Origin: a virus
DNA: 12,501 nucleotides
Direction: 5' to 3' (one strand)
Virus genome (UHGV): UHGV-1654647
Below, in pieces: positions 1-12,501 of this stretch (positions within the stretch are counted from its first letter, which is position 1; every line of letters starts with the position of its first letter). The notes under the pieces were generated by a model. The model made no database searches. It was not told the origin of the DNA and saw nothing but the letters and a program-made list of their open reading frames with translations. The translations under genes and the position numbers were made by a program.

Positions 1-606
1 TCCGAAATCACAGAGAGCCGGGCAGGTGGGAACCGGTATGGAACCGGTTTTCAGGGCGCGCAGCAGCGCCTCGCGGGAAAAATAAAACGTCGCGCCAATC
101 TGGCGGGATTTCAGGATATCGCGGATGCGGTGCTCAAGCCCGGCGCGATACCAGTGCAACTGATAGTCGAAAGACTGCTCAAAGAAAATCTGCTCCAGCT
201 TTTCGATGGCCTCGTCACTGAAAAAATTCTTTTTCGGTTTGCGGCGCCCGCCTTTGTTGCGGTTAGCGACGTTCGGATTAAGGTCTGCTTCGTTGCCGGT
301 CTGGCTGTAGCGGTTGACCCGTGCCAGTCGTTCAATCTGGCGTCCGAGCAGGTCAATTTCCTTGAAGTCACCGCCGGTTTTCTGCGGTTTGATGATGAGC
401 TGGGTCAGCCGCGCTTCCAGGCTCATTTCGACACGGCTGATGGGGGCAACGCTGTCCCAGCCGTCGCGCTGTTTCCAGCTCTGCACCGTCGGGCGTTTCA
501 TCTGCAACATGGCGGCAATCTGCGGCACGGAAAACCCCTGCCAGTACAGCAGCGCCGCCTGACGACGCGGGTCGTGTAAAAGAGTGGTGTCTGTGGTGAT
601 GGTCAT
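1..606 (-). CDS. P: Terminase large (ATPase) subunit, N-terminal 202 codons; 3' part lies beyond the window start
   Basis: Minus-strand frame is open from ATG at 604-606 down to position 1 with no stop (MTITTDTTLLHDPRRQAALLYWQGFSVPQIAAMLQMKRPTVQSWKQRDGWDS...). Divergent from the O-N-M-L operon exactly as in the P2 Q-P / O-N-M-L layout. Absent from the ORF track because it has no stop inside the window. Confidence 0.8.
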   Translation of the reverse strand, partial: MTITTDTTLLHDPRRQAALLYWQGFSVPQIAAMLQMKRPTVQSWKQRDGWDSVAPISRVEMSLEARLTQLIIKPQKTGGDFKEIDLLGRQIERLARVNRYSQTGNEADLNPNVANRNKGGRRKPKKNFFSDEAIEKLEQIFFEQSFDYQLHWYRAGLEHRIRDILKSRQIGATFYFSREALLRALKTGSIPVPTCPALCDFG

Positions 607-779
607 GAATACCTCGCCGTGATGAATACACGGCAAGGCTACTGAGTCGCGCCCCGCGATTCGCTAAGGTGCTGTTGTGTCAGTGATAAGCCATCCGGGA
701 CTGATGGCGGAGGATGCGCATCGTCGGGAAACTGATGCCGACATGTGACTCCTCTAATCACTATTCAGGACTCCTGACA
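607..779. promoter_or_regulatory. Divergent intergenic region between P (leftward) and O (rightward); expected site of two activator-dependent late promoters
   Basis: 173-bp non-coding gap between two divergently oriented start codons; AGGA Shine-Dalgarno at 767-770 ahead of O ATG 780; direct repeat GACTCCT at 747-753 and 769-775. In P2 the P and O late promoters (Ogr-activated) lie in this position. Exact -10/-35 and activator boxes not resolved by eye. Confidence 0.5.
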
Positions 780-1634
780 ATGGCAAAAAAAGCATCAAAA
801 TTCTTTCGTATCGGCGTTGAGGGTGACACCTGTGACGGGCGTGTCATCAGTGCGCAGGATATTCAGGAAATGGCCGAAACCTTTGACCCGCGAGTCTATG
901 GTTGCCGCATTAACCTGGAACATCTGCGCGGCATCCTGCCTGACGGTATTTTTAAGCGTTATGGTGATGTGGTCGAACTGAAGGCCGAAAAGATTGACGA
1001 TGATTCGGCGCTGAAAGGCAAATGGGCGCTGTTTGCGAAAATCACCCCGACCGATGACCTTATCGCGATGAACAAGGCCGCGCAGAAGGTCTATACCTCA
1101 ATGGAAATTCAGCCGAACTTTGCCAATACAGGCAAATGTTATCTGGTGGGTCTGGCCGTCACCGATGACCCGGCAAGCCTCGGCACGGAATACCTGGAAT
1201 TCTGCCGCACGGCAAAACACAACCCTCTGAACCGCTTCAAATTAAGCCCTGAAAACCTGATTTCAGTGGCAACGCCTGTTGAGCTGGAATTTGAAGACCT
1301 GCCTGAAACCGTGTTCACAGCCCTGACCGAAAAGGTGAAATCCATTTTTGGCCGCAAACAGGCCAGCGATGACGCCCGTCTGAATGACGTGCATGAAGCG
1401 GTGACCGCTGTCGCTGAGCATGTGCAGGAAAAACTGAGCGCCACTGAGCAGCGCCTTGCTGAGATGGAAACCGCCTTTTCCGCACTTAAGCAGGATGTGA
1501 CTGACAGGGCGGATGAAACCAGTCAGGCATTCACCCGCCTGAAAAACAGCCTCGACCATACCGAAAGTCTGACCCAGCAGCGCCGCAGCAAAGCCACCGG
1601 CGGTGGCGGTGACGCCCTGATGACGAACTGCTGA
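780..1634 (+). CDS. O: Capsid scaffolding protein (284 aa)
   Basis: ORF 714..1634; start chosen at internal ATG 780 (MAKKASKFFRIGVEGDTCDGRV...) which has an SD and gives the 284-aa length I recall for P2 gpO; first gene of the head operon, upstream of the major capsid gene. Confidence 0.88.
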   Translation: MAKKASKFFRIGVEGDTCDGRVISAQDIQEMAETFDPRVYGCRINLEHLRGILPDGIFKRYGDVVELKAEKIDDDSALKGKWALFAKITPTDDLIAMNKAAQKVYTSMEIQPNFANTGKCYLVGLAVTDDPASLGTEYLEFCRTAKHNPLNRFKLSPENLISVATPVELEFEDLPETVFTALTEKVKSIFGRKQASDDARLNDVHEAVTAVAEHVQEKLSATEQRLAEMETAFSALKQDVTDRADETSQAFTRLKNSLDHTESLTQQRRSKATGGGGDALMTNC

Positions 1635-1692
1635 CCGGCGTCAGTCAGTCCGGGAAAACCTTCACGATTAACCCTTAATTTCAGGAAAAACT

Positions 1693-2766
1693 ATGCGCCA
1701 GGAAACCCGCTTTAAATTTAATGCCTACCTGTCCCGTGTTGCCGAACTGAACGGCATCGACGCCGGTGATGTGTCGAAAAAATTCACCGTTGAACCGTCG
1801 GTCACCCAGACCCTGATGAACACCATGCAGGAGTCCTCTGACTTTCTGACCCGCATCAACATTGTGCCGGTCAGCGAAATGAAAGGGGAAAAAATTGGTA
1901 TCGGTGTCACCGGCTCCATCGCCAGCACCACCGACACCGCCGGTGGCACCGAGCGTCAGCCGAAGGACTTCTCGAAGCTGGCGTCAAACAAGTACGAATG
2001 CGACCAGATTAACTTCGATTTTTATATCCGCTACAAAACGCTGGACCTGTGGGCGCGTTATCAGGATTTCCAGCTCCGTATCCGTAACGCCATTATCAAA
2101 CGCCAGTCCCTTGATTTCATCATGGCCGGTTTTAACGGCGTGAAGCGTGCCGAAACCTCTGACCGCAGCAGCAATCCGATGCTGCAGGATGTGGCGGTCG
2201 GCTGGCTGCAGAAATACCGCAATGAAGCCCCGGCGCGCGTGATGAGCAAGGTCACTGACGAGGAAGGGCACACCACCTCTGAGGTCATCCGCGTGGGTAA
2301 GGGCGGTGATTATGCCAGCCTTGATGCACTGGTGATGGATGCGACCAACAACCTGATTGAGCCGTGGTATCAGGAAGACCCTGACCTTGTGGTGATTGTG
2401 GGACGTCAGCTACTGGCGGACAAGTATTTTCCCATCGTCAACAAGGAGCAGGACAACAGCGAAATGCTGGCCGCTGACGTCATCATCAGCCAGAAACGCA
2501 TCGGCAACCTGCCAGCGGTACGCGTCCCGTACTTCCCGGCGGATGCGATGCTCATCACGAAGCTGGAAAACCTGTCCATCTACTACATGGATGACAGCCA
2601 TCGCCGCGTGATTGAGGAAAACCCGAAACTCGACCGCGTGGAGAACTACGAGTCAATGAACATTGATTACGTGGTGGAAGACTACGCCGCCGGTTGTCTG
2701 GTGGAAAAAATTAAGGTCGGTGATTTCTCCACACTGGCTAAAGCGACCGCAGAGCCGGGAGCGTAA
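1693..2766 (+). CDS. N: Major capsid protein (357 aa)
   Basis: ORF 1693..2766, MRQETRFKFNAYLSRVAELNGIDAGDVSKKF...; recognised as the P2 gpN major capsid protein; length and position after the scaffold gene fit. Confidence 0.93.
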   Translation: MRQETRFKFNAYLSRVAELNGIDAGDVSKKFTVEPSVTQTLMNTMQESSDFLTRINIVPVSEMKGEKIGIGVTGSIASTTDTAGGTERQPKDFSKLASNKYECDQINFDFYIRYKTLDLWARYQDFQLRIRNAIIKRQSLDFIMAGFNGVKRAETSDRSSNPMLQDVAVGWLQKYRNEAPARVMSKVTDEEGHTTSEVIRVGKGGDYASLDALVMDATNNLIEPWYQEDPDLVVIVGRQLLADKYFPIVNKEQDNSEMLAADVIISQKRIGNLPAVRVPYFPADAMLITKLENLSIYYMDDSHRRVIEENPKLDRVENYESMNIDYVVEDYAAGCLVEKIKVGDFSTLAKATAEPGA

Positions 2767-2769
2767 CCG

Positions 2770-3513
2770 ATGACGAGTCCCGCACAGCGCCACATGATGC
2801 GGGTCTCGGCAGCGATGACCGCGCAGCGGGAAGCCGCCCCGCTGCGACATGCAACTGTCTATGAGCAGATGCTGGTTAAGCTCGCCGCAGACCAGCGCAC
2901 ACTGAAAGCGATTTATTCAAAAGAGCTGAAGGCCGCGAAAAAACGCGAACTGCTGCCGTTCTGGTTGCCGTGGGTGAACGGCGTGCTGGAGCAGGGCAAA
3001 GGTGCACAGGATGACATTCTGATGACGGTCATGCTGTGGCGTCTGGATACCGGCGATATTGCCGGTGCGCTGGAGATTGCCCGTTATGCCCTGAAGTACG
3101 GTTTGACCATGCCGGGTAAACACCGCCGTACCCCGCCGTACATGTTCACCGAGGAGGTAGCGCTTGCGGCCATGCGCGCTCACGCTGCCGGTGAGTCTGT
3201 GGATACCCGCCTGCTGACGGAGACCCTTGAACTGACCGCCACGGCTGACATGCCTGATGAAGTGCGCGCAAAGCTGCACAAAATCACCGGTCTGTTTCTG
3301 CGTGACGGTGGTGATGCCGCCGGTGCGCTGGCTCACCTGCAACGTGCGACACAGCTCGACTGTCAGGCAGGCGTCAAAAAAGAGATTGAACGACTGGAGC
3401 GGGAGCTGAAACCGAAGCCGGAGCCGCAGCCCAAAGCGGCCACCCGCGCCCCGCGTAAGATCCGGAGCGTGACACCGGCAAAACGTGGACGCCCGAAAAA
3501 GAAAGCCAGTTAA
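2770..3513 (+). CDS. M: Terminase small (endonuclease) subunit (247 aa)
   Basis: ORF 2770..3513, starts 1 nt after N stop; basic K/R/P-rich C-terminus (KPKPEPQPKAATRAPRKIRSVTPAKRGRPKKKAS); position and length match P2 gpM. Confidence 0.88.
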   Translation: MTSPAQRHMMRVSAAMTAQREAAPLRHATVYEQMLVKLAADQRTLKAIYSKELKAAKKRELLPFWLPWVNGVLEQGKGAQDDILMTVMLWRLDTGDIAGALEIARYALKYGLTMPGKHRRTPPYMFTEEVALAAMRAHAAGESVDTRLLTETLELTATADMPDEVRAKLHKITGLFLRDGGDAAGALAHLQRATQLDCQAGVKKEIERLERELKPKPEPQPKAATRAPRKIRSVTPAKRGRPKKKAS

Positions 3514-3612
3514 CAACCGAATGCGCCCCGCGCCAGGGCGGCACGCCGGTCAGTGAGGGTGAATCACCTGACACTGCACCGGCGTCCACCGCCCGACTTT
3601 TCAGAGGTAGTC

Positions 3613-4122
3613 ATGATGACGCTGATTATTCCGCGAAAGGAGGCTCCCGTGTCCGGTGAGGGTACGGTGGTCATCCCGCAACCGGCAGGCGACGAGCCGG
3701 TGATTAAAAACACGTTCTTTTTTCCCGATATCGACCCGAAGCGCGTCCGGGAACGTATGCGCCTTGAGCAGACCGTCGCCCCCGCCCGTCTGCGTGAGGC
3801 CATCAAGTCAGGCATGGCGGAGACGAATGCGGAGCTGTACGAGTACCGCGAACAGAAAATTGCCGCCGGTTTTACGCGTCTGGCGGACGTCCCGGCGGAC
3901 GACATCGACGGTGAAAGCATCAAAGTTTTTTACTACGAGCGCGCCGTGTGTGCGATGGCGACCGCGTCGCTTTATGAACGTTATCGCGGTGTGGATGCCA
4001 GTGCGAAAGGCGACAAGAAGGCCGACAGCATTGACAGCACCATTGATGAGCTGTGGCGGGATATGCGCTGGGCAGTGGCGCGCATCCAGGGCAAGCCGCG
4101 CTGCATCGTGAGTCAAATCTGA
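3613..4122 (+). CDS. L: Head completion/stabilisation protein (169 aa)
   Basis: ORF 3553..4122; start placed at ATG 3613 (MMTLIIPRKEAPVSGEG...), giving 169 aa as I recall for P2 gpL; stop overlaps X start (TGATG). Confidence 0.88.
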   Translation: MMTLIIPRKEAPVSGEGTVVIPQPAGDEPVIKNTFFFPDIDPKRVRERMRLEQTVAPARLREAIKSGMAETNAELYEYREQKIAAGFTRLADVPADDIDGESIKVFYYERAVCAMATASLYERYRGVDASAKGDKKADSIDSTIDELWRDMRWAVARIQGKPRCIVSQI

Positions 4123-4325
4123 TGAAGACCTTTGCGCTACAGGGCGACACGCTCGACGCCATTTGTGTCCGGTATTACGGGCGCACTGAGGGCGTGGTTG
4201 AGACCGTGCTCGCCGCAAATCCGGGACTGGCTGAACTGGGTGCGGTGCTGCCACACGGCACCGCCGTCGAACTGCCCGACGTTCAGACCGCGCCCGTGGC
4301 TGAAACTGTCAATCTGTGGGAGTAA
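4122..4325 (+). CDS. X: Tail protein X (67 aa, LysM-like fold family)
   Basis: Internal ATG 4122 of ORF 4053..4325 (MKTFALQGDTLDAICVRYYGRTEGVVETVLAANPGLAELGAVLPHGTAVELP...); start overlaps L stop; size and position match P2 gpX. Confidence 0.85.
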   Translation: MKTFALQGDTLDAICVRYYGRTEGVVETVLAANPGLAELGAVLPHGTAVELPDVQTAPVAETVNLWE

Positions 4326-4328
4326 CGC

Positions 4329-4610
4329 ATGACAGCAGAAGAAAAAAGCGTCCTGTCGCTTTTCATGATTGGGGTGCTGATTGTTGTCGGCAAGGTGCTT
4401 GCCGGTGGTGAACCCATCACCCCGCGTCTGTTTATCGGGCGCATGTTGCTCGGTGGTTTTGTCTCGATGGTTGCCGGTGTTGTTCTGGTGCAGTTTCCTG
4501 ACCTGTCACTGCCTGCGGTGTGCGGTATCGGCTCCATGCTGGGTATCGCCGGTTATCAGGTGATTGAGATTGCCATTCAGCGCCGCTTTAAGGGCAGGGG
4601 GAAACCGTAA
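4329..4610 (+). CDS. Y: Holin (93 aa)
   Basis: Small protein with hydrophobic transmembrane stretches (LSLFMIGVLIVVGKVLAGG..., GGFVSMVAGVVLVQF...) and charged C-terminus; sits immediately upstream of the endolysin; stop overlaps K start (TAATG). Confidence 0.88.
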   Translation: MTAEEKSVLSLFMIGVLIVVGKVLAGGEPITPRLFIGRMLLGGFVSMVAGVVLVQFPDLSLPAVCGIGSMLGIAGYQVIEIAIQRRFKGRGKP

Positions 4611-5107
4611 TGCCGGTTATTAACACGCATCAGAATATCGCCGCCTTTCTCGACATGCTGGCCGTGTCCGAAGGGACGGCAAACCATCCGCTGACGAAAA
4701 ACCGGGGCTATGACGTGATAGTCACCGGACTGGACGGGAAGCCGGAAATTTTCACCGACTACAGTGACCACCCGTTCGCACATGGCCGACCGGCGAAGGT
4801 GTTTAACCGTCGCGGTGAAAAATCCACGGCCTCCGGTCGCTATCAGCAGCTTTACCTGTTCTGGCCGCATTACCGCAAACAGCTTGCCCTGCCGGATTTC
4901 AGTCCGTTGTCACAGGACAGACTTGCCATTCAGTTGATCCGCGAACGCGGTGCACTGGATGACATCCGGGCGGGACGCATTGAGCGCGCCATTTCACGCT
5001 GTCGCAATATCTGGGCGTCCCTGCCGGGTGCCGGTTACGGTCAGCGTGAGCATTCACTGGAAAAACTGGTCACCGTCTGGCGTGCCGCTGGCGGCGTACC
5101 GGCTTAA
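4610..5107 (+). CDS. K: Endolysin (lysozyme/muramidase-like, 165 aa)
   Basis: ORF 4610..5107, MPVINTHQNIAAFLDMLAVSEGTANHPLTKNRGYDVIVTG...; second gene of the lysis cassette; length matches P2 gpK. Confidence 0.88.
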   Translation: MPVINTHQNIAAFLDMLAVSEGTANHPLTKNRGYDVIVTGLDGKPEIFTDYSDHPFAHGRPAKVFNRRGEKSTASGRYQQLYLFWPHYRKQLALPDFSPLSQDRLAIQLIRERGALDDIRAGRIERAISRCRNIWASLPGAGYGQREHSLEKLVTVWRAAGGVPA

Positions 5108-5121
5108 ACGGAGTAAACACC

Positions 5122-5547
5122 ATGAAGAAATTATCCCTTTCACTGATGCTGAACGTGTCGCTGGCGCTGATGCTGGCACTGTCCCTGATTTACCCGCAGA
5201 GCGTGGCCGTCAATTTTGTCGCCGCCTGGGCGATTCTGGCGACGGTTATCTGTGTGGTTGCCGGTGGTGTCGGCGTGTATGCCACTGAGTATGTGCTGGA
5301 ACGCTACGGGCGGGAGCTGCCGCCGGAATCGCTGGCCGTGAAGATTGTCGCGTCGCTGTTTTTGCAGCCGGTGCCGTGGCGCAGACGGGCGGCGGCTCTG
5401 GTGGTGATGGTGGCGACGTTTATCTCGCTGGTCGCTGCCGGGTGGATTTTTACCGCGCTGATTTACCTCGTGGCGTCGGTGTTCTTCCGGTTGATACGCA
5501 CGGCCTGTCGTCAGCGTTTTGAGGGGCGGGAACCATGTCAAAGCTGA
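5122..5547 (+). CDS. lysA: Lysis timing/regulator membrane protein LysA (141 aa)
   Basis: ORF 5122..5547, strongly hydrophobic with multiple predicted transmembrane segments; located between endolysin and spanin genes as in P2. Confidence 0.8.
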   Translation: MKKLSLSLMLNVSLALMLALSLIYPQSVAVNFVAAWAILATVICVVAGGVGVYATEYVLERYGRELPPESLAVKIVASLFLQPVPWRRRAAALVVMVATFISLVAAGWIFTALIYLVASVFFRLIRTACRQRFEGREPCQS

Positions 5548-5960
5548 TGATTGTGCTGGTTGTGTTGTTATCACTGGCGGTGGCCGGTCTGTTTCTGGCG
5601 AAGCATGAAAACGCCAGCCTGCGCACCTCGCTGGACAGGGCGAACAACGTCGCCAACGGGCAGCAGACGACCATCACCATGCTGAAAAATCAGCTTCATG
5701 TTGCCCTCGCCAGAGCAGACAAAAACGAGCTGGCGCAGGTGGCACTGCGTCAGGAACTGGAGAACGCGGCGAAGCGTGAAGCACAGCGCGAGAAAACCAT
5801 CACGAGGTTACTGAATGAAAACGAAGATTTTCGCCGCTGGTACGGCGCTGGCCTGCCTGATGCTGTGCGCCGGTTGCACCAGCGCCCGGCCTGCACCGAC
5901 GCCAGTGATTGTCGCCAACGCCTGCCCGAAAGTGAGCCTTTGCCCGATGCCGGGCAGTGA
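5535..5960 (+). CDS. lysB: Inner-membrane spanin (Rz-like) LysB (141 aa)
   Basis: ORF 5535..5960; N-terminal TM anchor (MSKLMIVLVVLLSLAVAGLFLA) followed by a charged, coiled-coil-like periplasmic region; start overlaps lysA end by 13 nt. Confidence 0.83.
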   Translation: MSKLMIVLVVLLSLAVAGLFLAKHENASLRTSLDRANNVANGQQTTITMLKNQLHVALARADKNELAQVALRQELENAAKREAQREKTITRLLNENEDFRRWYGAGLPDAVRRLHQRPACTDASDCRQRLPESEPLPDAGQ

Positions 5961-6105
5961 CCCGGAGACGAACGGCGATTTAAGTGCCGATATCCGACAG
6001 CTTGAGAACGCGCTGGCACGCTGTGCCAGCCAGGTAAAAATGATTAAACACTGTCAGGACGAAAACGATGCTCAAACCCGACAGCCTGCGCAGGGCGCTG
6101 ACTGA
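5815..6105 (+). CDS. lysC: Outer-membrane lipoprotein spanin (Rz1-like) LysC (96 aa), in +1 frame overlapping lysB 3' end and R 5' end
   Basis: ORF 5815..6105; signal peptide with Cys-containing lipobox-like motif (MKTKIFAAGTALACLMLCAGC) then Pro-rich mature part (TSARPAPTPVIVANACPKVSLCPMPGSDPE); overlapped architecture as in P2 lysB/lysC. Confidence 0.75.
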   Translation: MKTKIFAAGTALACLMLCAGCTSARPAPTPVIVANACPKVSLCPMPGSDPETNGDLSADIRQLENALARCASQVKMIKHCQDENDAQTRQPAQGAD

Positions 6106-6535
6106 TGCCGTCACGGTGCTGAAAACCAGTCCCGAGATGCTGCGGATATTCGTTGATAACGGGAGTATTGCCTCCACGCTGGCGACGTCGTTGTCATTCG
6201 AAAAGCGTTACACGCTCAATGTGATTGTGACCGACTTTACCGGTGATTTTGACCTGCTCATCGTGCCGGTGCTGGCGTGGCTGCGGGAAAATCAGCCCGA
6301 CATCATGACCACCGACGCAGGCCAGAAAAAGGGCTTCACGTTTTATGCAGACATCAACAATGACAGCAGCTTTGATATCAGCATCAGCCTGATGCTGACC
6401 GAGCGCACGCTGGTCAGTGAGGTGGACGGCGCACTGCATGTGAAGAATATCCCGGAACCCACGCCGCCGGAGCCGGTCACCCGCCCGGTGGAGCTTTATA
6501 TCAATGGCGAACTGGTGAGCAAGTGGGATGAATGA
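6068..6535 (+). CDS. R: Tail completion protein R (155 aa)
   Basis: ORF 6068..6535; position after the lysis cassette and length match P2 gpR; stop overlaps S start (ATGAATGA). Confidence 0.87.
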   Translation: MLKPDSLRRALTDAVTVLKTSPEMLRIFVDNGSIASTLATSLSFEKRYTLNVIVTDFTGDFDLLIVPVLAWLRENQPDIMTTDAGQKKGFTFYADINNDSSFDISISLMLTERTLVSEVDGALHVKNIPEPTPPEPVTRPVELYINGELVSKWDE

Positions 6536-6980
6536 GTTTAAGCGTTTTGAAGACCGGCTGACCGGACTGATTGAATCGCTGTCACCGTCAGGGCGTCGGC
6601 GACTGAGCGCCGAACTGGCGAAACGTCTGCGGCAGAGTCAGCAGCGTCGGGTGATGGCTCAGAAAGCCCCGGACGGCACACCCTACGCGCCACGCCAGCA
6701 GCAGAGCGCCAGAAAAAAGACTAGTCGTGTTAAGCGAAAAATGTTTGCGAAACTTATCACCAGTCGTTTTTTGCATATCAGCGCCAGCACGGAACAGGCA
6801 TCAATGGAATTTTACGGCGGAAAGTCACCGAAAATTGCGAGCGTGCATCAGTTCGGTCTGTCGGAAGAAACCCGGAAAGACGGTAAGAAAATTGATTATC
6901 CGGCGCGTCCCCTGCTCGGCTTTACCGGTGAGGATGTGCAGATGATTGAAGAGATTATTCTGGCGCACCTCGACCGTTAG
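6528..6980 (+). CDS. S: Tail completion protein S (150 aa)
   Basis: ORF 6528..6980, MNEFKRFEDRLTGLIESLSPSGRRRLSAELAKRLRQSQ...; position and length match P2 gpS. Confidence 0.87.
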   Translation: MNEFKRFEDRLTGLIESLSPSGRRRLSAELAKRLRQSQQRRVMAQKAPDGTPYAPRQQQSARKKTSRVKRKMFAKLITSRFLHISASTEQASMEFYGGKSPKIASVHQFGLSEETRKDGKKIDYPARPLLGFTGEDVQMIEEIILAHLDR

Positions 6981-7046
6981 TTGTGCCATTCCCGACACCT
7001 CATCGTCACATTGCCGCCGGTATGACCCGGCGGCATCCTTCCCGTT
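6981..7046 (+). promoter_or_regulatory. S-V intergenic region with a perfect GC-rich hairpin (7013-7034) immediately before V; probable location of the V-operon late promoter or a 5' leader structure
   Basis: 66-bp gap; GCCGCCGG (7013-7020), loop TATGAC, CCGGCGGC (7027-7034) is a perfect 8-bp inverted repeat ending 12 nt before the V ATG; no obvious SD for V; no T-run after the stem. P2 has a late promoter in front of V. Confidence 0.35.
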
Positions 7047-7682
7047 ATGAACACTCTCGCAAATATTCAGGAACTCGCGCGCGCACTGCGCAACATGATC
7101 CGCACCGGCCTTGTCGTCGAAACCGACCTTGACGCCGGTCGTTGCCGTGTGCAGACCGGCGGCATGTGCACTGACTGGCTTCAGTGGCTGACCCATCGCG
7201 CCGGACGTTCGCGCACATGGTGGGCGCCTTCCGTGGGGGAACAGGTGTTGATTCTGTCCGTGGGCGGTGAACTCGACACGGCGTTCGTTCTGCCGGGGAT
7301 TTATTCCGGCGATAACCCTGCGCCGTCTGCGTCGGCGGATGCACTGCATATCCGTTTCCCTGACGGGGCGGTGATTGAGTATGAACCCGAAACCAGTGGA
7401 CTCACGGTAAGCGGAATTAAAACGGCCAGCGTGACGGCTTCTGATTCTGTTACTGCCACGGTGCCGGTGGTCATGGTGAAAGCATCAACCCGCGTCACCC
7501 TGGACACACCGGAGGTGGTCTGCACCAACAAGCTGATTACCGGCACGCTGGAAGTGCAGAAGGGCGGGACGATGCGCGGCAACATTGAACACACCGGCGG
7601 TGAACTCTCATCAAACGGTAAGGTACTGCATACCCATAAACACCCCGGCGACAGCGGCGGCACAACCGGGAGTCCTTTATGA
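7047..7682 (+). CDS. V: Baseplate central spike protein (211 aa)
   Basis: ORF 7047..7682; length and position match P2 gpV; stop overlaps W start (ATGA). Confidence 0.88.
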   Translation: MNTLANIQELARALRNMIRTGLVVETDLDAGRCRVQTGGMCTDWLQWLTHRAGRSRTWWAPSVGEQVLILSVGGELDTAFVLPGIYSGDNPAPSASADALHIRFPDGAVIEYEPETSGLTVSGIKTASVTASDSVTATVPVVMVKASTRVTLDTPEVVCTNKLITGTLEVQKGGTMRGNIEHTGGELSSNGKVLHTHKHPGDSGGTTGSPL

Positions 7683-8026
7683 CAGCGCGTTATCTCGGAA
7701 TGAATCGCAGTGATGGCCTGACTGTCACTGACCTTGAGCATATCAGCCAGAGTATCGGCGATATCCTGCGTACCCCCGTCGGCTCACGGGTGATGCGTCG
7801 TGATTACGGCTCGTTGCTGGCGTCAATGATTGACCAGCCGCAGACCCCGGCGCTTGAGTTGCAGATTAAGGTCGCCTGTTACATGGCGGTGCTGAAATGG
7901 GAACCCCGCGTAACCCTGTCATCCGTCACCACTGAGCGCAGTTTTGACGGGCGAATGACTGTCACTTTGACCGGCCAGCACAACGACACCGGCCAGCCAC
8001 TTTCGTTAACCATCCCTGTGAGTTGA
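7679..8026 (+). CDS. W: Baseplate wedge protein (T4 gp25-like, 115 aa)
   Basis: ORF 7679..8026, MTARYLGMNRSDGLTVTDLEHISQSIGDILRTPVGSRVMRRDYGS...; length and position match P2 gpW. Confidence 0.88.
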   Translation: MTARYLGMNRSDGLTVTDLEHISQSIGDILRTPVGSRVMRRDYGSLLASMIDQPQTPALELQIKVACYMAVLKWEPRVTLSSVTTERSFDGRMTVTLTGQHNDTGQPLSLTIPVS

Positions 8027-8030
8027 AACC

Positions 8031-8939
8031 ATGCCGATTATCGACCTGAACCAGCTACCCGCACCGGATGTGGTCGAGGAGCTGGACTTTGAAACCATTC
8101 TCGCCGAACGCAAGGCGACACTGATTTCCCTTTACCCGGAAGACCAGCAGGAGGCGGTCGCCCGTACCCTGACGCTGGAATCCGAGCCTCTCGTCAAACT
8201 GCTGGAGGAAAATGCTTATCGTGAGCTTATCTGGCGTCAGCGTGTGAATGAGGCTGCACGGGCGGTAATGCTGGCCTGTGCCGCCGGTAATGACCTTGAT
8301 GTGATTGGTGCCAATTACAACACCACGCGCCTGACTATCACCCCGGCAGATGATTCGACCCTCCCGCCGACACCGGCCGTGATGGAATCTGACACCGATT
8401 ACCGTCTGCGTATTCAGCAGGCGTTTGAAGGTTTAAGCGTCGCCGGGTCGGTGGGAGCCTATCAGTATCATGGTCGCAGTGCCGACGGGCGTGTCGCGGA
8501 TATTTCTGTAACCAGTCCGTCTCCGGCCTGCGTCACCATCTCTGTGCTGTCACGTGAAAATAACGGTGTTGCATCCGAAGACCTGCTGGCCGTGGTGCGT
8601 AACGCCCTTAATGGTGAGGACGTCAGGCCGGTGGCCGACCGCGTGACCGTGCAGTCTGCCGCCATCGTTGAATACCAGATAAACGCCACGCTTTACCTTT
8701 ACCCTGGTCCCGAAAGCGAACCCATCCGCGCTGCTGCCGTGAAAAAACTGGAAGCGTACATCACGGCACAGCACCGGCTGGGGCGTGACATCCGTCTGTC
8801 TGCCATTTATGCCGCTTTGCATGTGGAAGGCGTGCAGCGTGTCGAACTGGCTGCACCACTGGCCGACATCGTGCTCAACAATACGCAGGCGTCTTTCTGT
8901 ACCGAATACAGCGTCGTGACCGGAGGCTCGGATGAGTGA
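8031..8939 (+). CDS. J: Baseplate assembly protein J (302 aa)
   Basis: ORF 8031..8939; length and order match P2 gpJ; stop overlaps I start (ATGAGTGA). Confidence 0.88.
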   Translation: MPIIDLNQLPAPDVVEELDFETILAERKATLISLYPEDQQEAVARTLTLESEPLVKLLEENAYRELIWRQRVNEAARAVMLACAAGNDLDVIGANYNTTRLTITPADDSTLPPTPAVMESDTDYRLRIQQAFEGLSVAGSVGAYQYHGRSADGRVADISVTSPSPACVTISVLSRENNGVASEDLLAVVRNALNGEDVRPVADRVTVQSAAIVEYQINATLYLYPGPESEPIRAAAVKKLEAYITAQHRLGRDIRLSAIYAALHVEGVQRVELAAPLADIVLNNTQASFCTEYSVVTGGSDE

Positions 8940-9543
8940 TTCGCGACTGCTGCCGACCGGCTCATCACCGCTTGAAGTTGCCGCCGCAAAAGCCTGTGCG
9001 GAAATTGAAAAAACGCCGGTCAGTATTCGTGAGCTGTGGAACCCGGACACCTGCCCGGCAAATCTGCTGCCGTGGCTGGCGTGGTCATTTTCGGTTGACC
9101 GCTGGGATGATAAGTGGCCGGAAGCGACAAAACGCGCTGTTATCCGCGATGCGTATTTCATTCACTGCCATAAGGGCACTATAGGCGCAATCCGACGTGT
9201 GGTGGAGCCGCTCGGCTATCTGATTGAGGTGAGGGAGTGGTGGCAACTCAACGAGGAGCCGGGGACGTTCCGTATCGTTGTTGGCGTGCTTGAGCAGGGT
9301 ATTACCGAGGAAATGTATCAGGAGCTGGAGCGCCTCGTTGCTGATGCAAAACCGGCAAGCCGCCATCTGACGGGACTGGCTATCAGTTTAAGTACAACCG
9401 GCAACATTTTTGCCGGTGCGGGATGCTATCACGGCGACGCCCTGACGGTTTATCCCTACACCCCGGAGGCCATTATTGTCGGAGGGGATTATTTCCCGGC
9501 CTCGGCCATTCATTTAATTGATAACCTGAGAGTAAACGCATGA
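8932..9543 (+). CDS. I: Baseplate protein I (203 aa; apparently longer than the 176 aa I recall for P2 gpI)
   Basis: ORF 8932..9543, MSDSRLLPTGSSPLEVAAAKACAEIEKTPVSIRELWNPDTCPANLLPWLAWSF...; start overlaps J stop, stop overlaps H start (ATGA). Confidence 0.82.
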   Translation: MSDSRLLPTGSSPLEVAAAKACAEIEKTPVSIRELWNPDTCPANLLPWLAWSFSVDRWDDKWPEATKRAVIRDAYFIHCHKGTIGAIRRVVEPLGYLIEVREWWQLNEEPGTFRIVVGVLEQGITEEMYQELERLVADAKPASRHLTGLAISLSTTGNIFAGAGCYHGDALTVYPYTPEAIIVGGDYFPASAIHLIDNLRVNA

Positions 9544-11087
9544 CAGTGAAATACTACGCCATTCTGACTAATCAGGGCGCGGCACGGCTGGCTAACGCGA
9601 CGATGCTCGGCAGTAAGCTGAATCTGACGCAAATGGCCGTTGGTGATGCGAATGGTGTCTTGCCGACACCAGACCCGGCACAGACAAAACTGATTAATCA
9701 GAAACGCATTGCACCGCTGAATCTTCTGAGTGTTGACCCGAACAACCAGAGCCAGATTATTGCGGAGCAAATCATCCCTGAGAACGAGGGCGGATTCTGG
9801 ATCCGTGAGATTGGGCTTTATGATGATGAAGGCGTACTCATTGCGGTGGCGAACTGCCCGGAAACGTACAAACCGCAGTTGCAGGAAGGCAGCGGTCGTA
9901 CCCAGACTATCCGCATGATTCTGGTTGTCACGAATACCGAAGCCATCACGCTGAAAATCGACCCGTCGGTGGTACTGGCGACCCGTAAATACGTGGATGA
10001 TGAAGTTCTGGAATTAAAGCTGTATGTGGATGACCAGATGAGAAACCACATTGCCGCACAGGATCCTCATACCCAGTATGCACAGAAACATAATCCGACA
10101 TTTACCGGAGAACCAAAAGCGCCGACGCCTGCCGCAGGAAATAACACCACGCGGATTGCGACCACTGAGTTTGTTCAGGCCGCTATTACCGCTCTGATTA
10201 ACGGTGCGCCAGCCACGCTGGACACACTGAAAGAAATTGCCTCAGCCATTAACAATGACCCGAAATTCAGCACCACCATTAACAATGCGCTGGCACTGAA
10301 AGCTCCGCTGTCGAGTCCCGCACTTACCGGAACGCCAACAGCACCTACTGCGGCACAGTCGGTCAACAATACACAGATTGCCACCACGGCTTTTGTGAAA
10401 TCAGCAATTGCGGCAATGGTGGGTTCTGCCCCTGCGGCACTGGATACACTGAATGAACTGGCGGCGGCGCTGGGGAATGACCCTAACTTTTCAACAACAG
10501 TGCTTAATGCACTGGCAGGCAAACAACCGCTGGACAATACGCTGACTAATTTGAGTGGAAAGGATGTTGCCGGTCTTCTCGCATACCTTGGTTTGGGAGA
10601 AGGCTCTGCATTACCTGTTGGTGTCCCTGTTCCGTGGCCTTCAGCCACTCCGCCAACAGGCTGGCTGAAATGCAATGGTGCAGCTTTTTCTGCTGAAGAA
10701 TACCCGGAACTGGCAAAAGTTTACCCGACAAATAAATTGCCTGATTTACGTGGTGAGTTTATTCGTGGCTGGGATGACGGGCGGGGGATTGATACAGGTC
10801 GCTCTATTTTAAGTATTCAGGGATATGCAACGGAGGATCATGCTCATGGATTACCGTCAAGATCCACGATTGTGACTGATGCAACTATTAATTTCTATTT
10901 TGATGAAAGCTGGGTAAATAGTGGCACTGACATTATCAAAAGAGGAAACACAAACGATGCCGGATTACCAGCACCGGATTATGGAACCTTTAAAACATAT
11001 AAACAATCAGTGGCTGGTTTAGGTGCCGCAGCCTCAGAAACGCGTCCGCGTAATATTGCATTTAACTATATCGTGAGGGCAGTCTGA
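9540..11087 (+). CDS. H: Tail fibre protein (515 aa): baseplate-attachment N-terminus, two tail-fibre repeats, crossover site, then collar-like receptor-binding C-terminus
   Basis: ORF 9540..11087. N-terminus has P2 gpH-like motifs (EGGFWIREIGLYDDEGVLIAVANCPETYKPQLQEGSGRTQT). C-terminus has tail-collar-like motifs (PVGVPVPWPSATPPTGWLKCNGAAFSAEEYPELAKVY, LPDLRGEFIRGWDDGRG). Much shorter than the 669 aa I recall for P2 gpH. Confidence 0.88.
   Translation: MTVKYYAILTNQGAARLANATMLGSKLNLTQMAVGDANGVLPTPDPAQTKLINQKRIAPLNLLSVDPNNQSQIIAEQIIPENEGGFWIREIGLYDDEGVLIAVANCPETYKPQLQEGSGRTQTIRMILVVTNTEAITLKIDPSVVLATRKYVDDEVLELKLYVDDQMRNHIAAQDPHTQYAQKHNPTFTGEPKAPTPAAGNNTTRIATTEFVQAAITALINGAPATLDTLKEIASAINNDPKFSTTINNALALKAPLSSPALTGTPTAPTAAQSVNNTQIATTAFVKSAIAAMVGSAPAALDTLNELAAALGNDPNFSTTVLNALAGKQPLDNTLTNLSGKDVAGLLAYLGLGEGSALPVGVPVPWPSATPPTGWLKCNGAAFSAEEYPELAKVYPTNKLPDLRGEFIRGWDDGRGIDTGRSILSIQGYATEDHAHGLPSRSTIVTDATINFYFDESWVNSGTDIIKRGNTNDAGLPAPDYGTFKTYKQSVAGLGAAASETRPRNIAFNYIVRAV
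10092..10307 (+). repeat. Tail-fibre repeat unit 1 (protein-level, about 72 aa) within H
   Basis: NPTFTGEPKAPTPAAGNNTTRIATTEFVQAAITALINGAPATLDTLKEIASAINNDPKFSTTINNALALKAPL aligns residue by residue with unit 2; the DNA copies are diverged. Confidence 0.7.
10311..10532 (+). repeat. Tail-fibre repeat unit 2 (protein-level, about 74 aa) within H
   Basis: SSPALTGTPTAPTAAQSVNNTQIATTAFVKSAIAAMVGSAPAALDTLNELAAALGNDPNFSTTVLNALAGKQPL; same motif order as unit 1 (Pro/Thr linker, NNTxIATTxFV, APAxLDTLxEuAxAuxNDPxFSTTuxNALAxK). Confidence 0.7.
10576..10601 (+). repeat. Left crossover site of invertible segment (gix/hix/cix-like 26-bp site) inside H
   Basis: TTCTCGCATACC-TT-GGTTTGGGAGAA: two imperfectly palindromic 12-bp half-sites around a central TT; resembles recalled gixL TTCCTGTAAACCGAGGTTTTGGATAA and hixL. 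Its 3' 15 nt are repeated exactly, inverted, at 12447-12461. Encodes LLAYLGLGE in the H frame. Confidence 0.7.
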
Positions 11088-11689
11088 TGCATAAAGCAAT
11101 ATTAAATAGTGAGCTCATTGCAACAAAGGCAGGGGATGTTACCGTTTATAACTATGATGGTGAAACACGGGAATATATTTCCACTTCAAATGAATATCTT
11201 GCCGTTGGTGTCGGCATTCCGGCATGTTCCTGTTTAGATGCCCCTGGCACACATAAGGCTGGTTATGCAATCTGCCGTTCTGCAGATTTTAACTCATGGG
11301 AATATGTGCCAGACCATCGCGGTGAAACGGTCTATAGCACCGAAACAGGAGAATCAAAAGAAATCACCGCTCCGGGTGATTACCCTGAAAATACAACCAC
11401 TATCGCCCCATTAACGCCATATGATAAATGGGATGGTGAGAAATGGGTGACGGATACCGAGGCACAGCATAGCGCCGCAGTAGATGCAGCAGAAGCACAG
11501 CGCCAGTCGCTGATTGATACTGCAATGGCTTCCATCAGTCTGATTCAACTGAAATTGCAGGCCGGACGTAAACTGACGCAGGCAGAAACAACCCGGCTTA
11601 ACGCTGTGCTGGATTACATTGACGCGGTGACGGCAACAGATACCAGCACCGCGCCGGATGTCATCTGGCCTGAACTGCCGGAGGCGTAG
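11087..11689 (+). CDS. G: Tail fibre assembly chaperone (Tfa family, 200 aa), partner of the currently expressed H C-terminus
   Basis: ORF 11087..11689; start overlaps H stop (TGATG); C-terminal Tfa-type motif (NAVLDYIDAVTATDTSTAPDVIWPELPEA); position equivalent to P2 gene G, but 200 aa versus the 175 aa I recall. Confidence 0.85.
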   Translation: MHKAILNSELIATKAGDVTVYNYDGETREYISTSNEYLAVGVGIPACSCLDAPGTHKAGYAICRSADFNSWEYVPDHRGETVYSTETGESKEITAPGDYPENTTTIAPLTPYDKWDGEKWVTDTEAQHSAAVDAAEAQRQSLIDTAMASISLIQLKLQAGRKLTQAETTRLNAVLDYIDAVTATDTSTAPDVIWPELPEA

Positions 11690-12104
11690 GCCATTCAATA
11701 TCTGGCGCACCGGAAGTATCGACCAGTTCCAGTGCGTCCAGGTAATCCAGCCACAAATTATATTGCGCCAGTTCGTCACCTTTCAGACGACCAATAGCTG
11801 CTTTGCCAGGCCATTGCTTACTGTTCATATATTCGTTGGCATTATCAATAAGATTTTGCTTTTGAGCTGTGGCAAGGAGTATTGCTTCTTCAGGAGCCAT
11901 TGGTGGAATATCAACCCACTCAGGTTGTCCATCATCATTTGCACCGCGCGCTTTCCCTTCAGGTGGTGTTCCTGAATAAGTCAAAAATATTTCATCAGAT
12001 ACTGGCGTAATATCATCCGGTAAGCTGTCATATGAGCGATATAGCTCCAGCATATCTACCGGATAAAAAGCTAACGTCGTCCGTGAAAAATAATAATTAC
12101 TCAT
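11661..12104 (-). CDS. Alternative tail fibre assembly chaperone (Tfa family, 147 aa), convergent with G
   Basis: ORF 11661..12104 minus; MSNYYFSRTTLAFYPVD...; C-terminus YNLWLDYLDALELVDTSGAPDIEWPTPPAVQAR carries the same Tfa motif as G; 3' ends of the two chaperone genes overlap by 29 nt (11661-11689). Confidence 0.8.
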   Translation of the reverse strand: MSNYYFSRTTLAFYPVDMLELYRSYDSLPDDITPVSDEIFLTYSGTPPEGKARGANDDGQPEWVDIPPMAPEEAILLATAQKQNLIDNANEYMNSKQWPGKAAIGRLKGDELAQYNLWLDYLDALELVDTSGAPDIEWPTPPAVQAR

Positions 12105-12105
12105 A

Positions 12106-12501
12106 TCAGCACCCTATTGCAAACCAGCGAAAATTATAATTGCCACCAGAAGCATCACAGCGTAGAAGAAATCCTGTTCTGGTCATATTCCCTGCTGCCC
12201 CGGCAACAATTTTTCCGCCACCATTATCGTAGGACGTCACCACCTGAAAACATTGTGACGGAAAAGCGATTGTGAAATTCATCTCATTGCCTGTCGAGCC
12301 TACATAACCCGTACCTGCATCTCCTGCCCCCCATTGGATAATCAATCCTCCCGGTAACTTCTGATATCCCTTGCTGGCAATACTGTCAGAAAAAGAACTC
12401 ATATCCGGTATCTGACCTGAACCTGTTCCCACATCCCGTTTTGCCGCTTCTCCCAAACCAACGTTTATGAAAATGCAGAGATAACGGGCAAGTGGCATCA
12501 T
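12106..12501 (-). CDS. Alternative tail-fibre C-terminal receptor-binding cassette; probably start-less and expressed only when inversion fuses it to the constant part of H
   Basis: Minus-strand ORF running from the window edge to a stop at 12106-12108, 1 nt upstream of the alternative chaperone start; crossover site lies at codons NVGLGE; downstream Gly-rich sequence (AAKRDVGTGSGQIPDMSSFSDSIASKGYQKLPGGLIIQWGAGDAGTGYVGSTG...) unrelated to the plus-strand H C-terminus. The ATG ATG at 12496-12501 may be fortuitous. Confidence 0.65.
   Translation of the reverse strand: MMPLARYLCIFINVGLGEAAKRDVGTGSGQIPDMSSFSDSIASKGYQKLPGGLIIQWGAGDAGTGYVGSTGNEMNFTIAFPSQCFQVVTSYDNGGGKIVAGAAGNMTRTGFLLRCDASGGNYNFRWFAIGC
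12448..12473 (+). repeat. Right crossover site of invertible segment (inverted relative to 10576-10601)
   Basis: TTCTCCCAAACC-AA-CGTTTATGAAAA; its reverse complement TTTTCATAAACG-TT-GGTTTGGGAGAA shares the central dinucleotide and the whole right half-site with the left site; half-site TTCTCCCAAACC resembles the gix half-site TTATCCAAAACC. Confidence 0.7.

Follow-up and report, generated by a model that had tools for sequence, protein, structure and literature searches.

The stretch of DNA analysed here (12,501 nt of the virus genome UHGV-1654647, hereafter the window) ends in a tail-fibre locus in which the fibre gene, H, is divided by a crossover site (Table 1). The constant N-terminal part of H, carrying the Phage_tail_fib domain, ends at the left site and lies outside a segment with a GC content of 0.467, versus 0.569 for the remaining window. 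Two alternative C-termini, each with its own chaperone gene, lie inside this segment: a plus-strand cassette with Collar and Caudo_TAP domains, which is joined to the constant part in the window's orientation, and a minus-strand cassette with Gp53-like_C and Caudo_TAP domains, the two convergent chaperone genes overlapping by 29 nt. Most of this layout had been anticipated in a sequence-only reading of the window, which placed the constant part of H outside, a variable C-terminus with its chaperone inside on the plus strand, and a convergent chaperone with a second fibre C-terminus on the minus strand; profile searches for tail-collar and resolvase domains returned Pfam Collar in H and Resolvase in the adjacent gene. 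What did not hold was the description of the second C-terminus as start-less, since the minus-strand fibre open reading frame (ORF) reads through the right site to ATG codons, giving a full ORF at 12106-12501.

Table 1. Features of the tail-fibre locus, in coordinates of the window.
Feature	Position	Strand	Description
Gene H, whole	9540-11087	+	515 aa; Pfam Phage_tail_fib N-terminus, Collar aa 361-408
Constant N-terminal part of H, outside the segment	9540-10587	+	aa 1 to ~349; Phage_tail_fib aa 1-150
Left 26-bp crossover site (pix/cix/gix type)	10576-10601	+	TTCTCGCATACC TT GGTTTGGGAGAA, centre TT 10588-10589
Invertible segment	10589-12460	none	1,872 bp, site centre to site centre
Variable C-terminus of H, now joined to constant H	10602-11087	+	aa 355-515, Pfam Collar
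Chaperone of active cassette (tail-fibre assembly)	11087-11689	+	200 aa, Pfam Caudo_TAP
Chaperone of alternative cassette (tail-fibre assembly)	11661-12104	-	147 aa, Pfam Caudo_TAP
Alternative C-terminus of H	12106-12461 (12106-12447 up to right site)	-	Pfam Gp53-like_C
Right 26-bp crossover site	12448-12473	-	TTTTCATAAACG TT GGTTTGGGAGAA on minus strand, centre 12460-12461
Leader outside the segment (MMPLARYLC...)	12474-12501	-	in-frame ATG ATG 12496-12501

The genomic setting is that of a P2-type prophage. Judged from the RefSeq annotation of Escherichia coli AH01, Pfam searches of the public contig L010 and the P2 reference (NC_001895), the gene order is that of P2, with scaffold, capsid, small terminase, head completion, X, holin, lysozyme and lysA/B/C, followed by R, S, V, W, J, I, H, an accessory slot and then FI/FII. 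The late order through J, I and H is alike in P2, and the pF/FI region resumes directly after the invertase gene at 98% identity to P2. H itself shares 51% of its residues with P2 H between aa 26 and 332, the homology stopping about 14 aa before the crossover site. P2, in contrast to the element studied here, has neither an invertase nor inverted sites; its H (669 aa) and G (175 aa) are fixed, and a terminator and the oppositely oriented fun(Z) precede FI. The description of canonical P2 in the sequence-only reading (fixed H and G followed by Z/fun) is thereby borne out, and the invertase and cassettes do occupy the G-Z/fun position at which it had proposed a module exchange. The chaperones were also considered as relatives of P2 G, a relationship that is marginal or non-existent (E = 0.007 and 0.44).

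A repeat search of the window returned an inverted repeat with 27-nt arms (10576-10602 and 12447-12473) that are 81% complementary. A degenerate site pattern matched the window exactly twice, at the positions of the two crossover sites, and occurred 0 times in 200 dinucleotide-preserving shuffles of the window, the chance expectation being 0. The right site is identical to the right site of the P segment in the K-12 prophage e14 at 26 of 26 positions, the left site to its e14 counterpart at 23 of 26, and both align with the annotated cixL and cixR of P1 and gix of Mu as imperfect dyads whose 12-bp half-sites enclose a 2-bp centre; the TT/AA centre is common to the window sites and the annotated cix sites. 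Within the left site is also found the e14 repeat TTGGTTTGGGAGAAGG, which has been reported as the inversion site of that prophage (PMC12529663). The gix-like inverted sites that the sequence-only reading placed around the unit are thus real and homologous to known crossover sites, and a chance inverted repeat can be dismissed on the shuffles and on the homology to the e14 and P1 sites. The central dinucleotide matches in both sites in opposite orientation (TT on the plus strand on the left, AA on the plus strand on the right), so that religation is possible only as inversion. A third site was absent from the window, and from 27 kb of a relative, even when up to 7 mismatches were tolerated. 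With two sites only in the window, two variants are expected and not a shufflon-like arrangement of four, such as that of one P2-like prophage of enteropathogenic E. coli (EPEC); an actual shufflon (Rci tyrosine recombinase with multiple sfx sites) was likewise rejected, as there are only two sites and the neighbouring recombinase is a serine enzyme.

This recombinase gene lies beyond the end of the window and is known from public sequences that are identical or nearly identical to it. L010, in which the segment lies the same way round as in the window, covers positions 5540-12501 with 100% identity, and past this region a further 2,586 nt of the contig show no difference from AH01; in both sequences, a gene for a 197-aa serine invertase begins 28 nt past position 12501, which agrees with the prediction of an enzyme of about 180-200 aa just past that point. 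The product contains Resolvase (E = 3e-52) and HTH_7 domains (Pfam) and the N-terminal motif MLIGYVRVSTNDQ, which includes Ser9. It matches the sequence of the Gin crystal structure (PDB 3uj3) with E = 6.6e-95, and shares 88% of its residues with PinE and 81% with each of Gin and Cin. Nucleotides 19-90 of the gene align without gaps to the annotated enhancer in P1 cin, with identities of 81% to cin, 85% to pinE and 75% to gin compared with 68-78% elsewhere; however, this stretch is coding, and the modest excess in conservation is therefore not decisive for an enhancer. Promoter and terminator scans of the segment, and of the short gap before the invertase gene, returned nothing relevant to the switch above shuffled expectation.

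Inversion in silico anywhere in the perfect 15-nt core common to both sites keeps the frame of H and converts the 515-aa protein to a 467-aa H', and AH01 has an intact coding sequence (CDS) of 1,404 nt annotated for the fused H', consistent with the earlier expectation that both orientations maintain the frame across the crossover. AH01 carries the flipped form: it is identical at 2962 of 2962 nt to the reverse-complemented segment in the same flanks, and the remaining window (e.g., 37-10602) is matched in direct orientation at 99.98% identity. A related segment in O157:H7 strains ATCC 43890 and BB24-1 is 100% identical in reverse complement, the two strains having opposite orientations, and the identity breaks at the site centres. 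Among near-full-length relatives, the window's orientation is seen in three genomes and the flipped one in five. Both orientations of the segment are thus found, between separate genomes and assemblies, and the absence of any substitution in the segment between independent assemblies of opposite orientation indicates recent flipping. Since the 15-nt core is identical in the two sites, the sequence of the products alone cannot separate site-specific inversion from RecA-dependent recombination between the repeats, and an assembly error could also place the segment the other way round. We consider either of these a highly improbable source of the orientation differences: 15 nt is far below the length of an efficient RecA substrate, a Gin-family invertase is encoded 28 nt away, the sites are homologous to the experimentally defined pix and cix, and unrelated strains and assemblies share the same break points.

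The closest known counterpart is the P segment of e14, which also consists of a fibre constant part, two convergent tip and chaperone cassettes and an invertase gene directly downstream, and in which inversion at the repeat shared with the left site has been measured by qPCR (PMC12529663). The plus-strand cassette shows 94% DNA and 97.5% protein identity to StfE/TfaE, with H aa 350-514 being 97.6% identical to StfE and the 200-aa chaperone 97.5% identical to TfaE over 200 aa. The second cassette differs: its Gp53-like_C tip is 38% identical to the C-terminus of StfP, and the resemblance of its 147-aa chaperone to TfaP is confined to the C-terminal half (77% identity over the C-terminal 70 aa). 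Further differences are seen in the constant part (here a P2-type H of full length, set in a P2-type late operon that is otherwise complete, and in e14 a truncated lambdoid Stf), in the length of the segment from centre to centre (1,872 bp versus 1,827 bp in e14), and in the longer C-terminal tail of the invertase (197 aa, versus 184 aa in PinE). The G segment of Mu and the C segment of P1 are alike in plan, with a constant Sc joined to either Sv/U or Sv'/U', 26-bp sites built around a 2-bp centre and an adjacent invertase gene. The stretch of the present invertase gene that aligns with the annotated enhancer of P1 is conserved as well, though in coding sequence this does not by itself establish an enhancer. 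The Mu and P1 segments differ in their host phages, which are not of P2 type, in the size of the segment (about 3 kb in Mu and 4.2 kb in P1 versus 1.9 kb here) and, for Mu gix, in a TC/GA centre in place of TT/AA. A kinship of the cassettes with Mu S and U was dropped, as BLASTP of the cassette proteins against these gave no match at E<1e-3.

Taken together, we are confident that the region is a site-specific inversion switch of the Pin/Gin/Cin type in the tail-fibre gene of a P2-type E. coli prophage. By this reading, the serine invertase encoded 28 nt past the window would pair the two inverted sites, cut at the central TT/AA dinucleotides and turn round the 1,872-bp segment. In the present orientation, the constant part of H would carry the StfE-like collar-domain tip, followed by the TfaE-like chaperone, and after inversion it would carry the gp53-like tip, followed by that tip's own chaperone; dependence on Fis and an enhancer may be presumed from the G segment of Mu and the C segment of P1. 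The two states of those segments give particles with different receptor or host specificity. By analogy, particles from the two states of the present switch would probably adsorb to different receptors, and hence differ in host range. Such an arrangement is ordinary: it is widespread across E. coli, and P2-like prophages that carry it have been reported before (PMC4272514; bioRxiv 10.1101/2024.10.15.618418). The P2-like loci of EPEC E2348/69 likewise have an invertase gene by tail-fibre and chaperone genes in the G-FI interval, with coexisting orientations; a two-variant and a four-variant tail-fibre locus are known there, the phase variation having been seen by sequencing and, for the four-variant locus, also by PCR (PMC4272514). 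P2-like phages frequently carry, at their Z/fun hotspot, a DNA invertase together with inverted genes beside it (bioRxiv 10.1101/2024.10.15.618418).

A different question is whether the switch still operates in its host, as the sites and cassettes could have been inherited by a decaying prophage, for instance, in which inversion has been lost. Nucleotides 1 to about 43 of the window interrupt the homology to the terminase gene, the junction being found in none of 5,426 complete E. coli genomes; given this break, the prophage copy may be defective and produce no virions. The cassette genes of the close relative SCU-316 are also annotated as frameshifted, which would fit such decay. Both sites, the four cassette ORFs and the invertase gene are nevertheless all intact, independent assemblies show both orientations without a single substitution in the segment, and in e14, itself a defective prophage, the switch still inverts (PMC4272514, PMC12529663). 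A locked relic is therefore improbable, and a working inversion switch remains the preferred reading.

The ATG codons of the minus-strand ORF raise a further scenario, in which the switch would also, or mainly, serve the lysogen: the invertase-proximal ORF would yield a small free tip protein that blocks the adsorption of superinfecting phages, carrying the gp53-like tip in the window's orientation or the collar tip in the other. The two ATG codons are in frame and, in the identical contig, follow a GGAG; e14 stfE and the O157 prophage retain the leader (M(M)P..Y..IFINVGLGE), and RefSeq carries the invertase-proximal fibre ORF as a CDS. A precedent is provided by the e14 chimera StfE2 (start of stfE joined to the C-terminus of StfP), which blocks the adsorption of T2 (PMC12529663), and the ORF of the window shares the architecture of StfE2, with a tip 38% identical to StfP. 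At that level, however, the tip is no more than a distant relative of StfP, the GGAG lies at a poor spacing of 0-3 nt from the ATGs, and the promoter scan found no promoter-like site in the 27-nt gap to the invertase gene. Moreover, the outer half of the crossover site largely fixes the sequence of the leader, whose conservation need not therefore reflect a function of the protein. We regard a role of the switch in the lysogen as unlikely, and as slightly less likely again that the ORF at 12106-12501 is expressed there as a free receptor-binding-domain protein blocking the adsorption of other phages. If this were true, a single flip would toggle both the future host range of the prophage and the resistance profile of the lysogen, and the StfE2 mechanism of the cryptic e14 would extend to intact and widespread P2-type prophages.

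For the tail-fibre switch itself, the practical consequence is that two assemblies of one prophage may both be correct and yet show this 1.9-kb segment in opposite orientations, the annotated tail fibre then being 515 aa in one and 467 aa in the other, each with its own tip. As orientation changes the tip that is annotated, predictions of host range for P2-type prophages should weigh both cassettes. Beyond correct annotation the importance of the locus is slight, but the presence of a cassette with 97.5% amino acid identity in both a P2-type prophage and the lambdoid remnant e14 makes it a clean worked example, and this nearly unchanged sharing illustrates the horizontal exchange of tip and chaperone modules via common crossover sites.

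The window is the late region of an Escherichia coli P2-type prophage, and the inverted repeat in its tail-fibre region is confirmed: its 27-nt arms (10576-10602 and 12447-12473, 81% complementary) lie exactly where the sequence-only reading had placed them. The left and right sites share 15 nt, comprising the inner half-site and centre, and their outer half-sites are unlike. A degenerate pattern covering both sites matched only these two positions in the window and had no match in 200 dinucleotide-preserving shuffles, and no third copy appeared when up to 7 mismatches were tolerated. On the plus strand the centres are opposed (TT at 10588-10589, AA at 12460-12461) and thus match the requirement for inversion. 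Comparison with characterized systems indicates that the sites, earlier described as gix-like, are homologous to known crossover sites. In e14, the defective prophage of K-12 MG1655, StfP, TfaP, TfaE, StfE and PinE are laid out as in the window; the right site is identical to the e14 site adjoining pinE (26/26), and the left site matches that within stfP at 23/26 positions. The e14 P segment was found by qPCR to invert at the repeats TTGGTTTGGGAGAAGG / CCTTCTCCCAAACCAA (2025; PMC12529663), of which the first occurs exactly at 10588-10603 and the second is matched at 15/16 positions. In the GenBank record of P1, cixL and cixR are annotated together with their crossover points; when aligned on these points, P1 cix, Mu gix and the window sites follow a common pattern (TTnTCnnAAACC-NN-GGTTTnnGAnAA), with the TT/AA centre common to P1 and the window.

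Crossover sites and cassette genes in the window
Feature	Position	Strand	Description
Left 26-bp site	10576-10601	+	TTCTCGCATACC TT GGTTTGGGAGAA
Right 26-bp site	12448-12473	-	TTTTCATAAACG TT GGTTTGGGAGAA
H	9540-11087	+	515 aa; Phage_tail_fib N-terminus; Collar domain aa 361-408
Active-cassette chaperone	11087-11689	+	200 aa; Caudo_TAP
Alternative-cassette chaperone	11661-12104	-	147 aa, convergent; Caudo_TAP
Alternative fibre tip	12106-12461	-	Gp53-like_C

The coding layout proposed earlier, with H, a plus-strand chaperone, a convergent chaperone and a second tip, is present. The active cassette shows 94% DNA and 97.5% protein identity to e14 StfE/TfaE; StfP/TfaP are no more than distant relatives of the alternative cassette. 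The segment between the site centres (10589-12460) is distinctly lower in GC content (0.467) than the remaining window (0.569), consistent with a horizontally exchanged or acquired module. A 29-nt overlap (11661-11689) between the convergent chaperone genes leaves no space for an intergenic terminator, and an 18-nt inverted repeat (11608-11625 / 11734-11751, 89% complementary) is due to their homologous C-termini being encoded on opposite strands.

The claim that the reading frame is kept across the crossover both ways holds, as the in-silico reverse complement of the segment yields an open H' of 467 aa with the junction ...AGLLAYLGLGEAAKRDVG... in place of the 515-aa H. The flipped 2,962 nt from the H start to the window end occur in the strain AH01 with 100.0% identity and 100% coverage, the fused fibre gene being an intact annotated CDS of 1,404 nt. 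No comparably perfect match to the unflipped window was found among 5,426 complete E. coli genomes; its orientation is represented at 100% identity by the ENA assembly contig ERZ1745005 NODE_719 (L010), which matches window 5540-12501 and extends beyond its end. The 2,586 nt compared downstream of the segment show no difference between L010 and AH01. Independent assemblies thus carry one and the same prophage sequence in opposite orientations, its segment free of substitutions. From the AH01 match, the exchange must lie rightward of 10587, in the centre or the shared core: any cut to the left of that would alter the junction residues. In a related O157:H7 prophage, the segment of ATCC 43890 is the 100% reverse complement of that of BB24-1, and at either end the identity is lost at the site centre. 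Among near-full-length relatives, three genomes have the window orientation and five are flipped. The closest same-orientation RefSeq relative, SCU-316 (L001 12001-14966; 96.8% identity), has H and all four cassette genes annotated as frameshifted pseudogenes; the frameshifts might stem from sequencing errors or from a switch that is genuinely decaying in this strain.

The serine invertase predicted just beyond 12501 was found outside the window in both L010 and AH01, where a 594-nt ORF begins 28 nt further on; the gene is likewise found at this position in SCU-316 and both O157 strains. The 197-aa product combines Resolvase (E = 3e-52) and HTH_7 domains, has the N-terminal motif MLIGYVRVSTNDQ including Ser9, matches the crystallised Gin sequence (E = 6.6e-95), and is 88% identical to PinE and 81% to both Cin and Gin. 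It is 4-13 aa longer than these three proteins. The enhancer annotated within P1 cin has a gap-free alignment to nucleotides 19-90 of the gene; though coding, these are somewhat more conserved (75-85%) than the remaining gene (68-78%), consistent with a candidate enhancer.

The second fibre C-terminus had been taken to lack a start, which proved incorrect: its ORF runs past the right site to an in-frame ATG ATG (12496-12501) beyond the segment boundary, in the stretch at L010 6935-6990. These codons and the invertase gene are divergent, with 27 nt between the two starts, and L010 has GGAG just upstream of the ATGs. The leader (MMPLARYLCIFINVGLGE; 12474-12501, minus strand) is kept in e14 stfE and the O157 prophage. 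The window as given is in a state analogous to the e14 StfE2 arrangement, and StfE2 (stfE start with StfP tip) is reported to block adsorption of phage T2 (PMC12529663). A lysogen-side function of the alternative ORF is conceivable but unsupported, and we consider it improbable.

The AH01 chromosome (NZ_CP055251.1) matches window 37-10602 with 99.98% identity, and its RefSeq annotation there follows the P2 gene order (scaffold, major capsid, small terminase, head completion, X, holin, lysozyme, lysA/B/C, R, S, V, W, J, I, fibre gene). The P2 layout given earlier was accurate: the reference has a fixed H of 669 aa and a G of 175 aa, followed by a terminator, by fun(Z) on the other strand and then by pF and FI. 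P2 H and the window H share 51% identity, confined to aa 26-332 and ending ~14 aa before the crossover site, and P2 G is essentially unrelated to the window chaperones. P2 similarity (98%, continuing into FI) returns within the pF control region, 21 nt short of the stop codon of the invertase gene. The cassettes and invertase thus fill the H-tip/G/Z-fun slot, in line with the proposed module exchange. Since these last 21 nt (L003 14563-14583 in AH01; about 7563-7583 in L010) are already pF-region sequence, the invertase 3' end overlaps the P2-annotated activator-binding site of the F-operon promoter. Within the constant H shaft, a ~72-aa tandem duplication (about 10095-10530; aa about 186-330) with the pattern ...TGxPxAPT...NNTxIATTxFV...AP..LDTL.E.A.A..NDP.FSTT..NAL..K.P also appears as a second BLASTP alignment to P2 H. 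At the other end, window 1-43 does not match the terminase ATPase gene encoded by 44-606 (minus strand), whose ORF departs from the AH01 version after codon ~187; the junction at ~43 occurs in 0 of the 5,426 genomes. A contig-end artefact, a rearrangement or an insertion boundary might account for the mismatch; if it is genuine, this copy of the prophage is without an intact terminase.

Inversion switches of this kind are textbook knowledge, and the element itself is already known. Invertible arrangements in P2-like prophages have been published: both orientations coexist in two such prophages of EPEC E2348/69 (PMC4272514), a survey of P2-like phages often met DNA invertases flanked by inverted genes at the Z/fun hotspot (bioRxiv 10.1101/2024.10.15.618418), and a domain-wide screen found neighbours of programmed inversions enriched for phage tail protein I and tail fibre assembly proteins (PMC9881135). 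The locus is matched in part by 3,020 of the 5,426 genomes, and the junction of constant H with the StfE-like tip occurs at at least 80% coverage in 373; only this particular gp53-like allele is uncommon (near-full-length matches in about 8).

Interpretation of the locus as an inversion switch is supported, with the sites, the reading frames, the enzyme and naturally occurring flipped forms all evident in the sequences compared. The invertase would synapse the two sites and cut their central dinucleotides with a stagger, and the segment would be rotated, with Fis predicted, by homology to Mu, P1 and e14, to be bound at the candidate enhancer in the 5' end of the invertase gene. The flip would swap the tip and chaperone read from the late V-operon transcript and, by analogy with the same three elements, may thereby switch the receptor recognized by the phage.
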